The notes under the pieces: model-generated
Seen by the model: only the letters and a program-made list of their open reading frames with translations
Told to the model about the DNA's origin: nothing
Databases searched by the model: none
Assembly: GCF_003334815.1 (NCBI RefSeq)
Contig: NZ_QOWO01000015.1
Reading direction: 5' to 3' (one strand)
From: Escherichia coli
GTDB lineage: Bacteria; Pseudomonadota; Gammaproteobacteria; Enterobacterales; Enterobacteriaceae
DNA length: 64,000 bases
Program-made: the position numbers and the translations under genes
In this document: positions 17,530 to 21,330 of the stretch, piece after piece
How the letters are laid out: each line of letters opens with the position of its first letter
How positions within the stretch are numbered: the stretch's first letter is position 1

Positions 17530-17889
17530 GTGGCAGAAGAAACTATATTCAGCAAAATTATTCGTCGTGAGATCCCCTCCGATATCGTCTACCAGGATGA
17601 TCTGGTAACGGCGTTTCGCGATATTTCGCCGCAAGCGCCAACGCATATTCTGATCATTCCGAATATCCTCATTCCGACTGTGAACGACGTCTCAGCTGAG
17701 CATGAGCAGGCGCTGGGACGCATGATCACCGTAGCGGCAAAAATTGCTGAGCAAGAAGGTATTGCCGAAGATGGCTATCGTCTGATCATGAATACCAACC
17801 GCCATGGCGGACAAGAGGTTTACCACATCCATATGCACTTGTTGGGTGGCCGTCCGCTGGGACCAATGCTGGCGCATAAAGGTCTGTAA
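17530..17889 (+). CDS. hinT: HIT-family purine nucleoside phosphoramidase, 119 aa
   Basis: Histidine-triad motif [10 protein letters not shown] start at 17530 preferred to the upstream ORF-track start. Confidence 0.88.
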
Positions 17890-17891
17890 CG

Positions 17892-18269
17892 ATGAGAAAA
17901 GGATGCTTTGGGCTGGTGTCTCTGGTGTTGTTACTGCTGGTGGGCTGTCGTTCACATCCGGAAATTCCGGTGAATGATGAGCAATCGCTGGTGATGGAGT
18001 CATCTTTATTGGCTGCGGGCATCAGTGCAGAAAAGCCCTTCCTTTCGACGTCTGATATTCAACCTTCAGCATCCTCAACGCTTTATAACGAAAGGCAAGA
18101 ACCCGTTACCGTTCATTATCGTTTTTACTGGTATGACGCCAGAGGGCTGGAGATGCATCCTCTGGAAAGGCCACGCAGCGTTACCATTCCCGCACATTCG
18201 GCGGTAACGCTGTACGGCAGCGCCAATTTTCTGGGGGCGCACAAAGTCAGACTTTATCTATATTTGTAA
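17892..18269 (+). CDS. ycfL: Lipoprotein YcfL, 125 aa
   Basis: Lipobox LLVGC; 3-bp gap after hinT. Confidence 0.85.
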   Translation: MRKGCFGLVSLVLLLLVGCRSHPEIPVNDEQSLVMESSLLAAGISAEKPFLSTSDIQPSASSTLYNERQEPVTVHYRFYWYDARGLEMHPLERPRSVTIPAHSAVTLYGSANFLGAHKVRLYLYL

Positions 18270-18282
18270 GGGGTGAATCTTG

Positions 18283-18924
18283 ATGACAAAAATGAGTCGC
18301 TACGCCTTGATTACCGCGCTGGCGATGTTTCTCGCCGGGTGTGTGGGGCAACGTGAACCTGCACCGGTAGAAGAAGTGAAACCAGCGCCGGAACAACCAG
18401 CCGAGCCACAACAGCCTGTCCCCACAGTGCCCTCGGTGCCGACGATCCCGCAGCAGCCAGGCCCAATTGAGCACGAAGATCAAACTGCACCGCCTGCGCC
18501 GCATATTCGCCATTATGACTGGAATGGCGCAATGCAGCCGATGGTCAGTAAGATGCTTGGGGCTGACGGGGTGACTGCGGGTAGCGTCCTGCTGGTTGAT
18601 AGCGTTAACAACCGTACTAACGGTTCGCTGAATGCCGCAGAAGCGACCGAAACGCTGCGAAATGCGCTGGCTAATAACGGGAAATTTACCCTGGTTTCCG
18701 CCCAGCAACTGTCGATGGCGAAGCAACAGTTAGGTTTGTCGCCGCAGGACAGTTTAGGCACCCGTAGTAAAGCCATAGGCATTGCCCGCAATGTCGGCGC
18801 TCATTACGTGCTGTACTCCAGCGCCTCTGGCAACGTTAACGCTCCGACCCTACAAATGCAGCTGATGCTGGTGCAGACGGGCGAAATTATCTGGTCAGGT
18901 AAAGGTGCCGTTTCGCAGCAATAA
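18283..18924 (+). CDS. lpoB: Outer-membrane lipoprotein activator of PBP1b
   Basis: Lipobox FLAGC followed by a Pro-rich linker and C-terminal globular domain. Confidence 0.88.
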
Positions 18925-19729
18925 TCCCATCACGCGCGACGAATTGCTGTCGCGCTTTTTCCCGCAGTATCATCCCGTCACGACGTTTAATAGTGGGCTT
19001 AGTGGCGGGAGTTTTCTCATTGAACATCAGGGCCAGCGTTTTGTTGTGCGTCAGCCGCACGATCCTGATGCGCCGCAGTCCGCGTTCTTGCGCCAGTATC
19101 GGGCTTTATCACAACTACCCGCATGCATTGCACCGAAGCCGCATTTATATCTCCGTGACTGGATGGTAGTCGACTATCTGCCCGGCGCGGTAAAAACGTA
19201 TTTGCCGGATACCAACGAACTGGCAGGCTTGCTGTATTATCTACATCAACAACCACGTTTTGGCTGGCGAATAACGCTGTTGCCGTTACTGGAACTGTAC
19301 TGGCAGCAAAGCGATCCGGCGCGGCGGACAGTGGGTTGGCTGCGAATGTTAAAACGTCTGCGCAAAGCGCGGGAACCACGGCCTTTACGCTTAAGTCCAT
19401 TGCATATGGATGTCCACGCCGGAAATTTAGTGCATAGCGCGTCAGGGTTAAAACTCATCGACTGGGAGTATGCCGGAGATGGTGATATCGCGCTGGAACT
19501 GGCGGCGGTGTGGGTGGAAAATACTGAACAGCACCGGCAATTGGTCAATGACTATGCCACTCGCGCGAAGATTTATCCGGCGCAATTATGGCGTCAGGTC
19601 AGGCGATGGTTTCCCTGGCTGCTGATGCTCAAAGCAGGGTGGTTTGAGTACCGCTGGCGACAAACCGGCGATCAACAATTTATCAGGCTGGCCGATGACA
19701 CCTGGCGGCAGCTATTAATAAAACAATAA
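18905..19729 (+). CDS. thiK: Thiamine kinase, 274 aa
   Basis: Aminoglycoside-phosphotransferase-like fold ([15 protein letters not shown]); overlaps lpoB 3' end by 20 nt. Confidence 0.88.
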
Positions 19730-19739
19730 GGAGAGCAGT

Positions 19740-20765
19740 GTGGGTCCAGTAATGTTGGATGTCGAAGGTTACGAACTGGACGCGGAAGAGCGTGAAATAC
19801 TGGCGCATCCGCTGGTGGGAGGGCTGATTCTCTTTACGCGTAACTATCATGATCCTGCCCAGTTACGTGAACTGGTGCGCCAGATCCGCGCAGCTTCGCG
19901 CAATCGTCTGGTGGTGGCGGTTGATCAGGAAGGTGGACGCGTGCAGCGTTTTCGTGAAGGTTTTACCCGCTTGCCAGCGGCGCAATCATTCGCTGCGCTG
20001 TCAGGAATGGAAGAGGGTGGCAAACTGGCGCAGGAGGCAGGTTGGTTGATGGCCAGCGAAATGATCGCTATGGATATTGATATCAGCTTTGCGCCTGTGC
20101 TGGATGTCGGGCATATCAGCGCGGCGATTGGCGAGCGTTCTTATCATGCCGATCCACAAAAAGCCCTGGCAATTGCCAGCCGGTTTATTGATGGTATGCA
20201 TGAAGCCGGAATGAAAACGACCGGGAAACACTTCCCAGGACACGGTGCAGTAACGGCAGACTCACACAAAGAAACACCGTGCGATCCACGTCCACAAGCG
20301 GAGATTCGCGCTAAAGATATGTCGGTCTTCAGTTCCTTAATCCGCGAAAATAAACTCGACGCCATTATGCCTGCGCATGTGATCTACAGTGATGTTGATC
20401 CGCGTCCGGCGAGCGGTTCTCCCTACTGGCTGAAAACCGTTTTGCGTCAGGAACTGGGTTTTGACGGCGTGATTTTCTCTGACGATTTATCGATGGAAGG
20501 TGCCGCGATTATGGGCAGTTATGCCGAACGCGGGCAGGCTTCACTGGATGCGGGTTGCGATATGATCCTGGTCTGCAATAATCGTAAAGGGGCCGTCAGC
20601 GTGTTAGATAATCTGTCACCGATCAAGGCAGAACGTGTTACACGTTTGTATCATAAAGGTTCATTTTCGCGACAGGAACTGATGGACTCGGCTCGCTGGA
20701 AAGCGATCAGCACCCGTCTGAATCAGTTACATGAACGCTGGCAGGAAGAGAAAGCAGGTCACTAA
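19740..20765 (+). CDS. nagZ: Beta-N-acetylhexosaminidase (GH3), 341 aa
   Basis: GH3 motifs ([19 protein letters not shown]); GTG start. Confidence 0.92.
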
Positions 20766-20787
20766 CCCTGGCTTATGTGAGGAAGCG

Positions 20788-21330
20788 ATGATTATCTATT
20801 TACACGGTTTTGACTCTAACAGTCCGGGTAACCACGAGAAAGTCTTACAATTGCAGTTTATTGACCCGGATGTACGCTTGATAAGCTACAGTACGCGGCA
20901 TCCGAAACATGATATGCAGCATCTGCTTAAAGAAGTGGACAAAATGTTGCAACTGAACGTTGACGAGCGTCCGCTAATTTGCGGCGTTGGCTTGGGCGGA
21001 TACTGGGCGGAACGGATTGGTTTTCTTTGCGACATCCGCCAGGTGATCTTCAACCCTAATTTGTTCCCTTATGAGAACATGGAAGGCAAGATTGATCGCC
21101 CGGAAGAGTATGCCGATATTGCCACTAAGTGTGTGACCAACTTCCGTGAAAAGAATCGCGATCGTTGCCTGGTGATTTTGTCGCGTAATGATGAAGCGCT
21201 TAACAGCCAGCGGACATCTGAAGAGTTGCATCATTATTACGAGATTGTCTGGGACGAAGAGCAGACGCACAAATTCAAGAATATCTCCCCGCATTTACAG
21301 CGCATTAAAGCGTTCAAAACCCTCGGGTAA
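20788..21330 (+). CDS. ycfP: UPF0227 alpha/beta-hydrolase-like protein YcfP, 180 aa
   Basis: [18 protein letters not shown]...; ATG at 20788 preferred to the longer ORF-track start that overlaps nagZ. Confidence 0.85.

Follow-up and report, generated by a model that had tools for sequence, protein, structure and literature searches.

Within a 64,000-nucleotide stretch of Escherichia coli DNA (contig NZ_QOWO01000015.1; called the window below), the genes hinT, ycfL, lpoB, thiK, nagZ, and ycfP follow one another on the plus strand between positions 17530 and 21330. We found that the beginning of thiK encodes two RNA hairpins just behind the lpoB stop codon, and we are highly confident that these hairpins are an RNA element maintained by selection. 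They may form the transcript boundary of a hinT-ycfL-lpoB message, a mechanism to which we give roughly even chances. Taken as a whole, the locus is quite probably best explained as a known operon with two translationally coupled junctions, an lpoB/thiK overlap led by the LpoB reading frame, and selected hairpins in thiK that mark a message boundary. The locus has more structure than the picture of a single coupled unit suggests: it comprises two apparently coupled junctions, three independent ribosome-binding sites, and a pair of hairpins; it further holds a Rho-dependent drop in RNA inside thiK and, probably, an internal promoter in nagZ.

The two hairpins are located as follows.
18934-18955, followed by UUUUU at 18956-18960, plus strand: hairpin 1, GCGCGACG-aauugc-UGUCGCGC, thiK codons 10-19
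18973-19010, with a tail at 19011-19018, plus strand: hairpin 2, an outer stem and a small inner stem, thiK codons 23-38

As DNA, hairpin 1 reads GCGCGACG-aattgc-TGTCGCGC followed by TTTTT. It was flagged by a terminator scan and supported by the centroid fold. With eight base pairs (six of them G-C), a loop of 6 nt, and the run UUUUU, it has the GC-rich stem-loop and U-tract that define an intrinsic terminator. In E. coli, the hairpin begins 10 nt after the lpoB stop codon. For comparison, one locus per species was fetched from 80 Enterobacteriaceae species via ThiK alignment; counts refer to 81 loci, and two contigs of the set end before ycfP. Across these loci, the distance from the lpoB stop codon to the stem is 6 nt in 55 cases and 9 nt in the other 26, and at least four of the six nucleotides following the stem are U in 76 of the 81 cases. 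Standard base pairs made up 96.9% of the pair cells, compared with 14–57% when the 3′ arm was slid. One of the pairs is formed by the third bases of the thiK codons for Arg11 and Ser16; 41 loci have C-G, 35 have U-A, and 5 have U-G, whereas C-A does not occur at all. Mapping onto a neighbour-joining tree gives four changes for either base but only five for the pair, so that at least three switches were concerted. The pairing even survives amino acid replacement, with D12H and S16T in Enterobacter and with GAA/UUU in Lelliottia.

The outer stem of hairpin 2 consists of 9 bp, UCCCGUCAC pairing with GUGGCGGGA (18973-18981 with 19002-19010), and is followed by GUUUUCUC (19011-19018). Within the family, this U-rich tail occurs only in Escherichia. 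The outer stem was 85.6% paired in the 80 species, versus 37–62% in slid controls. The segment 18925-19024, which contains both hairpins, folds with an energy of −32.6 kcal/mol (z = −2.28). The Enterobacteriaceae sampled keep hairpins 1 and 2, and distant Enterobacterales repeat a terminator-like hairpin at the position of hairpin 2. There, Erwinia-like bacteria, Tatumella, and Symbiopectobacterium have a canonical GC-rich stem with a U-tract, exemplified by CCGGUGGC-ugau-GCCACCGG-UUGUUUUU, by CCGGCGGU-ugau-ACCGCCGG-UUUUCAUUU, and by CACCCGGC...GCCGGGUG-UUUUUUAU. An Rfam scan of positions 16900-21900 at E ≤ 1 returned no family matching the hairpins or any part of the operon.

Folding was compared with a codon-resampling null, in which the ThiK peptide was kept fixed for each species and synonymous codons were re-drawn from the species' own usage in the six genes. 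The results were as follows.
thiK codons 9-19 (hairpin 1): median z −2.67, p ≤ 0.05 in 84% of species
thiK codons 23-37 (hairpin 2): median z −3.06, p ≤ 0.05 in 91% of species
five other thiK segments: median z −0.56 to +0.31, p ≤ 0.05 in 3–14% of species
same codon positions in the other five genes: median z −0.67 to +0.45, p ≤ 0.05 in 4–18% of species
ycfP codons 23-37, the exception: median z −1.38, p ≤ 0.05 in 42% of species

Since the folding of both segments exceeds this null, we conclude that selection has acted on the hairpins as RNA and that they do not simply follow from the peptide sequence. Both show the marks of a structured RNA under selection, namely compensatory change and folding beyond the demands of the protein.

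Published transcript data bear on the same gene. Supplementary file 2 of PMC7815308 lists a Rho termination region with its peak at NC_000913.3 position 1,163,767, which corresponds to window position 19412 on the plus strand, inside thiK. The offset (NC_000913.3 = window + 1,144,355) was derived from the row of a 3′ end internal to ycfL, and the resolution of the Rho peaks is coarse. The reads in the 800 nt upstream and downstream amounted to 182 and 51 in untreated samples and to 96 and 85 in the presence of bicyclomycin (Rho score 3.16, p = 1e-7). Hence, a 3.6-fold drop in RNA across thiK was reduced to 1.1-fold by the inhibitor (PMC7815308). Because bicyclomycin evens the read counts, the RNA falls from lpoB to nagZ in a Rho-dependent way, and because the drop in thiK is relieved, we did not classify the hairpins as a plain intrinsic terminator. 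The only Term-seq 3′ end listed within the unit lies inside ycfL, at window position 18079 (NC_000913.3 1,162,434), 187 nt into the gene (PMC7815308). No obvious hairpin was seen there; just downstream, ycfL codons 77-89 (18120-18158) show raised third-position conservation. The 5′- and 3′-end data of PMC6131387 and PMC4782308 contain no rows matching this locus.

A mechanism that would accommodate these observations starts from weak initiation at thiK, which would leave the RNA free for Rho. The hairpins beside the lpoB stop codon would then be a leaky terminator, a block to 3′-exonucleases after Rho termination in thiK, or both. The outcome would be a stable and abundant hinT-ycfL-lpoB message, and ThiK and, in part, NagZ and YcfP would be made from fewer transcripts. 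The promoter-like element inside nagZ described below may add to the transcription of ycfP. We also put forward, as a possibility that falls somewhat short of even chances, that the initial ~105 nt of thiK also function as a conserved attenuator of the genes upstream, embedded in the thiK codons, with the hairpins being maintained across the Enterobacterales. In such an attenuator, the 20-nt overlap would place the thiK start upstream of the hairpins, and only transcripts with a ribosome re-initiating from lpoB to thiK would have their hairpins melted and extend to nagZ and ycfP. This would explain the invariant adjacency and overlap of lpoB and thiK despite the unrelated functions of the two proteins.

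The repetitive extragenic palindromic (REP) hairpins of malE-malF are known protective 3′ stem-loops within an operon. Further stabilising hairpins within operons were described by Dar and Sorek in 2018 (PMC5927463), and Rho-terminated transcripts are trimmed back to a stem-loop (PMC6061677). Like such attenuators and protective stem-loops, the thiK element is a conserved, stable hairpin just 3′ of a gene needed in higher amounts, and the RNA drops across the next gene, thiK, with Rho termination further downstream. Unlike protective stem-loops, which occupy a spacer, the thiK hairpins lie inside the next coding sequence, which starts upstream of them; furthermore, no 3′ end is listed at them, and the operon was not scored as differentially decaying (PMC5927463). 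With intrinsic terminators they share, in E. coli, the GC-rich 8-bp stem, the 6-nt loop, and the five U of hairpin 1 and, in Erwinia-like bacteria, Tatumella, and Symbiopectobacterium, a GC stem of 8-9 bp with a loop of 4 nt, followed by a U-tract. They differ from intrinsic terminators in their intracistronic position, in the short U-tract of E. coli, which is followed by CCC, in the bicyclomycin sensitivity of the RNA drop, and in the missing Term-seq entry for a 3′ end (PMC7815308).

The segment 17300-21600 (4301 nt) is 100% identical to E. coli K-12 MG1655, and the block was present at ≥95% identity in 5424 of the 5426 complete E. coli genomes. In the six genes and their coordinates, the list of open reading frames of the window agrees with the RefSeq annotation of MG1655, which confirms the gene set given in the preliminary description of this DNA.
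17530-17889, plus strand: hinT, purine nucleoside phosphoramidase, GTG start (NF007965, 264 bits)
17892-18269, plus strand: ycfL, DUF1425 lipoprotein, ATG start (RefSeq name; Pfam DUF1425 in orthologous loci)
18283-18924, plus strand: lpoB, PBP1b activator, ATG start (TIGR02722)
18905-19729, plus strand: thiK, thiamine kinase of the APH family, GTG start (NF007620, 554 bits)
19740-20765, plus strand: nagZ, beta-N-acetylhexosaminidase, GTG start (NF003740)
20788-21330, plus strand: ycfP, alpha/beta hydrolase UPF0227, ATG start (NF003431, residues 1-179 aligned)

Five of the six proteins (HinT, LpoB, ThiK, NagZ, and YcfP) matched NCBIfam equivalogs above the curated cut-offs; in the profile search of the six proteins, YcfL had no NCBIfam model. 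In other genera, hinT starts with ATG at the same position. The ycfP start was placed at 20788 and not at the upstream in-frame ATG at 20731 because the YcfP model aligns from residue 1 of the 180-residue form; this ATG and its GAGGAA Shine-Dalgarno site are conserved across the loci. A sequence search of ThiK against the PDB for links to cell-wall-recycling sugar kinases gave no hit at E ≤ 0.01. The operon is named in PMC3130732, PMC4974736, PMC11731830, and PMC5927463 on the basis of in silico or database evidence, and one paper among PMC3130732, PMC4974736, and PMC11731830 describes it as "apparent, in silico". Since several papers name the transcription unit, the gene arrangement itself is known, as had been remarked at the outset. 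The papers found on the operon mention neither the hairpins nor the element internal to nagZ, nor how deeply the overlap is conserved.

The order of the six genes was identical in all 80 Enterobacteriaceae species. According to the preliminary description, all neighbouring genes overlap or have no more than 3 bp between them. This applies to two of the five junctions, hinT/ycfL (+2 nt) and lpoB/thiK (−20 nt), and not to ycfL/lpoB (+13), thiK/nagZ (+10), and nagZ/ycfP (+22), so that the ycfP start said to be close to the nagZ stop codon is in fact separated from it by a 22-nt spacer. The gap between ycfL and lpoB would be +10 if the in-frame TTG at 18280 were used as the start. The gaps across the loci are as follows.
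hinT/ycfL: −1 to +5 nt (81 loci)
ycfL/lpoB: mostly 10-13 nt
lpoB/thiK: −20 nt in 80 of 81 loci
thiK/nagZ: −13 to +42 nt
nagZ/ycfP: 20-39 nt

Thus, lpoB/thiK is the only junction of constant length, and all other junctions vary. In the single exception, GCA replaces GTG; the nearest in-frame start, picked by the start-finding script, is a TTG 6 nt downstream, with which the overlap would be 14 nt. ThiK relatives with 34–47% identity were found in Erwinia sp. HR93, Tatumella, Symbiopectobacterium, and further Enterobacterales. In these, thiK again lies directly 3′ of lpoB, with a called overlap of 17, 20, or 23 nt. Since the absence of ycfL, nagZ, or ycfP from some of these loci leaves the overlap in place, the connection of lpoB and thiK is the most stable feature of the locus. 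The start of lpoB is ambiguous, as an in-frame TTG at 18280 precedes the annotated ATG at 18283; in 35 of the 81 loci (several Citrobacter, Enterobacter, Kosakonia, and others), the equivalent of this TTG is the sole start codon after GGGGTG.

Coupled, overlapping cistrons that rely on termination and re-initiation are known from trpE-trpD, trpB-trpA, and many ATGA or TAATG junctions. The strength of the Shine-Dalgarno sites, expressed as the energy of the duplex with the anti-Shine-Dalgarno sequence, was low for ycfL (−3.4 kcal/mol) and thiK (−4.9 kcal/mol, AGG site). Sites of their own were found for lpoB (−8.4 kcal/mol, GGGGTG), nagZ (−9.3 kcal/mol, GGAG), ycfP (−6.2 kcal/mol, GAGGAA), and hinT (−5.6 kcal/mol). 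The medians over 79-81 loci were within 0.2 kcal/mol of the E. coli values. The two weak sites coincide exactly with the two tight junctions, and hinT/ycfL and lpoB/thiK thereby combine a start next to or within the end of the upstream gene with the lack of a strong site for the downstream gene. From this tight spacing and the poor downstream Shine-Dalgarno sites, translational coupling from hinT to ycfL and from lpoB to thiK appears likely. Like known coupled cistrons, both pairs have starts beside or inside the upstream end, a weak downstream Shine-Dalgarno site, and a conserved geometry. The lpoB/thiK pair differs from typical examples in its 20-nt overlap, where 1 or 4 nt are usual, and in its GTG start. 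The other three junctions (+13, +10, and +22 nt) are too wide and fall outside the class, which was assigned here from sequence. The coupling proposed earlier for all six genes did not hold up, as lpoB, nagZ, and ycfP have spacers of 10-22 nt and their own sites. That these three genes start translation from their own ribosome-binding sites is a predicted part of the overall explanation, which we rate as a whole as fairly probable.

The overlap itself proved to be real.
18905-18924, plus strand: lpoB/thiK overlap of 20 nt including the stop codon, with the thiK GTG embedded in LpoB Gly208-Ala209 (gGT Gcc)

The thiK start is GTG in 80 of the 81 loci. Analysis of synonymous-site conservation, which had been suggested as a check on the overlap, revealed constraint at 18880-18921 (lpoB codons 200-213), where the third-position identity in 12-codon windows was ≥0.80, compared with 0.645 on average over the operon; the synonymous constraint predicted at the overlap was thus borne out. 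Among 1096 windows of 8 codons ranked by synonymous constraint, those that start at lpoB codons 204-206 took places 25-49. LpoB Gly208 is encoded by GGT in 80 of 81 loci, and its T, which is synonymous for Gly208, is the middle base of the thiK GTG. Gly206 is GGT in 76 of 81 loci and forms the AGG Shine-Dalgarno site of thiK; Val210 is GTT in 71 of 81 loci. As the codons for Gly206 and Gly208 are fixed, the constraint reaches upstream of the overlap, over the initiation signals of thiK. The third base of Ala209 is free, and ThiK residue 2 is therefore P, L, Q, or R. The overlap had been described as constrained in two frames. This is correct for the LpoB C-terminus (KGAVQQQ) and for the thiK start signals; ThiK residues 2-7, in contrast, vary freely and follow the LpoB frame. 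Hence, within an overall explanation that has good support in our view, the overlap appears to be fixed mainly by the C-terminal residues of LpoB together with the start codon and Shine-Dalgarno site of thiK, the LpoB frame being dominant. A fold obtained for E. coli, in which the region of the thiK GTG pairs with lpoB codons further upstream, was considered as a coupling hairpin and rejected: taken whole, it is not significant (z = −0.71), and its stem requires a TCG codon for LpoB residue 211 that is specific to E. coli, so that it is not conserved.

The strongest synonymous constraint of the six genes was found inside nagZ and not in the lpoB/thiK overlap.
20535-20687, plus strand: strongest synonymous-site conservation of the operon, nagZ codons 266-316

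In this block, the third-position identity is 0.80-0.86, compared with 0.645 for the operon. It contains the near-invariant strings GGTTGCGATATGATCCTnGTCTGCAATAATCGTAA, CTGTCnCCGATCAA, CGTGTTAC, and TTGTATCATAAAGGTTCATTT, the first of which is a promoter-like hit: the promoter scan gave a −35 hexamer TTGCGA (20555-20560), a 16-nt spacer, and TGc AATAAT (20574-20582), i.e., a hit with TG. This motif is invariant in nearly all of 78 loci, third codon positions included, and combines sigma-70 hexamers and spacing with conservation beyond coding. The predicted start lies near 20589, approximately 200 nt upstream of ycfP. RNA structure was rejected as the reason for the conservation, as the RNAalifold consensus was weak and codon resampling gave z values of +0.4 and +0.7; a DNA-level or linear motif is favoured instead. 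The constraint on the block is relaxed outside the Enterobacteriaceae; because this applies to all distant families, a comparison with the few loci of species that lack ycfP (L087 and L092) gave no information on a link with ycfP. Compared by eye, the block gave no convincing match to the consensus sequences of sigma-E, sigma-32, sigma-28, sigma-54, LexA, CRP, IHF, or Fur, and a literature search for named internal promoters or terminators of the operon returned nothing relevant. The simplest reading, which we regard as a lead, is that the block may comprise an internal promoter for ycfP and adjacent protein-binding sites. A second, weaker patch of third-position conservation covers ycfP codons 33-54 (20884-20949).

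A consensus scan upstream of hinT revealed a candidate for the operon promoter.
17434-17463, plus strand: candidate operon promoter, −35 TTGAAA (17434-17439), 18-nt spacer, −10 CATACT (17458-17463)

Its distance to the hinT GTG downstream is approximately 67 nt. The site is conserved in all 81 loci, with ≥90% conservation of the two hexamers and of the flanking sequence GGTTGAAAG...TCATACTCT, unlike the rest of the leader. TTGAAA-18-CATACT is thus probably the sigma-70-type promoter of the operon.

How firmly can the hairpins be regarded as an RNA element with a role at the end of a message? They might be a by-product of the conserved N-terminal ThiK peptide (TRDxxLSR..., PV..SGG) and of G+C-rich codons, with no function as RNA. 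Indeed, the ThiK residues R11, L15, R17, F19, P20, G31, and G34 are invariant in a 16-sequence protein alignment, and the stem bases are mostly first or second codon positions. Nevertheless, re-drawing the codons weakens the folding of both hairpins (median z of −2.67 and −3.06), whereas seven control segments have z values near 0; paired synonymous sites switch jointly from CG to UA with UG as the only intermediate; the replacements D12H/S16T in Enterobacter and GAA/UUU in Lelliottia preserve the pairing; and the wider ThiK family model begins only at residue 26. An origin from the peptide is already disfavoured and strikes us as very improbable. The main rival to the transcript boundary is a role of the hairpins in translation, either by slowing or limiting ribosomes that have just started on thiK, which would keep ThiK scarce, or by stopping post-termination ribosomes from drifting, which would favour re-initiation at the GTG 20 nt before the lpoB stop codon. 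Hairpin 1 is only 6 or 9 nt past this stop codon, i.e., at the leading edge of a terminating ribosome. The weak Shine-Dalgarno site and GTG start of thiK, the strong structure at codons 9-37, opposite to the other five genes, and the missing 3′ end at the hairpins in the Term-seq tables of PMC7815308 would also fit. Yet, the hairpin of the distant Enterobacterales lies 34-55 nt past the stop codon and is a canonical terminator with a U-tract, which a barrier for re-initiation would not need. Moreover, elongating ribosomes readily unwind stems of this size, and the locus is evidently controlled at the transcript level, as shown by the Rho-sensitive fall in RNA. We consider a translational role rather unlikely.

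Two further explanations concern the unit as a whole and the reality of the overlap. The operon could form one compact message with all six cistrons coupled via near-zero spacers and no internal signals, which was the original proposal. The conserved gene order and tight packing, the intergenic spacers, every one of which is too short for a classical terminator, and the treatment of the unit as a single operon in the literature speak for it. However, three of the five spacers are 10-22 nt long and carry strong or moderate Shine-Dalgarno sites, and in two of these spacers the length ranges from −13 to +42 nt and from 20 to 39 nt, depending on the species. In addition, the Rho termination region inside thiK, the conserved hairpins, and the promoter-like block in nagZ are at odds with a uniform transcript, and we regard this explanation as improbable. 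The overlap could be an annotation artefact, the true ThiK start being downstream of the lpoB stop codon. In support of this, the N-terminal 25 residues of ThiK are outside the broad family model, GTG is a weak start codon, and Symbiopectobacterium entries occur in two alternative lengths of 288 and 295 amino acids. Against it, 80 of 81 loci retain the synonymous T of Gly208 and 76 of 81 retain GGT for Gly206, no other in-frame start is conserved before the P-loop-like GLSGG (residues 31-35), and distant families again have an ATG or GTG called 17-23 nt upstream of the lpoB stop codon. An artefact is exceedingly improbable.

Several observations weigh against our own interpretation, i.e., a selected hairpin pair at the boundary of a message. 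The single-sequence thermodynamic z-scores are modest, ranging from −0.04 to −6 with a median near −1.5. The species are related, and the percentages of loci are therefore not independent trials. The U-rich tails encode conserved Phe/Tyr-Phe-Pro or hydrophobic residues and could thus be driven by the protein. The RNA drop is sensitive to bicyclomycin and hence not due to intrinsic termination alone. Neither hairpin (~1,163,315 or ~1,163,370) has a Term-seq 3′ end under three conditions in the curated tables of PMC7815308, which were inspected from 1,163,2xx to 1,163,4xx and in which expression of the locus is low. The operon was among the 390 analysed in PMC5927463 but is absent from the differentially decaying operons of that study. 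Finally, the promoters upstream of hinT and inside nagZ are both predicted solely from sequence.

The gene arrangement as first described is a textbook-level operon and matters little. The signals embedded in it are of known kinds; we did not find them described for this operon in the literature, and they are modestly novel. In related species, NagZ feeds into the induction of AmpC. Among the determinants of beta-lactam tolerance, LpoB is a major one; it gave the strongest signal for meropenem in transposon-directed insertion site sequencing (TraDIS; PMC11731830). Awareness that expression of lpoB may be bounded by an RNA element in thiK, and that nagZ possibly contains a promoter for ycfP, is useful for engineering or deleting these genes. 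A Keio-type deletion or a recoding of thiK or nagZ could alter the stability of the lpoB mRNA or the expression of ycfP. The locus further illustrates, in clean form, how an RNA signal imposes sequence on a protein's N-terminus and how one frame, here that of LpoB, dominates a dual-coding segment.

Some of the loci outside the main set deviate in their organisation. On a small A+T-rich contig (L085:3102-4352), a ThiK-like gene follows directly after hinT, with neither ycfL nor lpoB. In CP073338.1 (L091:2425-4301), the locus is broken into short open reading frames and appears pseudogenised; the hairpin-1 sequence ACGCGCGAC...GTCGCGCTATTTT is still present.

Downstream of ycfP, positions 21331-21460 contain a cluster of REP-type palindromes that matches Rfam naRNA4 (RF02564) on both strands, just under the gathering score (56.5 and 52.5 versus 59.5 bits). 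Cleavage by RNase III within the ycfP-ndh spacer was reported at 1,166,043 in the genome coordinates of PMC5371410 (version unchecked), and an "orphan" Rho termination region in the ndh leader at NC_000913.3 position 1,165,914, equivalent to window position 21559, with a Rho score of 2.45 (PMC7815308). On the other side of the operon, fhuE (15007-17196, minus strand) lies between ptsG and hinT in E. coli, in divergent orientation. In three distant loci (L082, L084, and L089; Erwinia-like bacteria and Symbiopectobacterium), hinT directly follows ptsG, and fhuE therefore looks like an insertion into an older ptsG-hinT neighbourhood.

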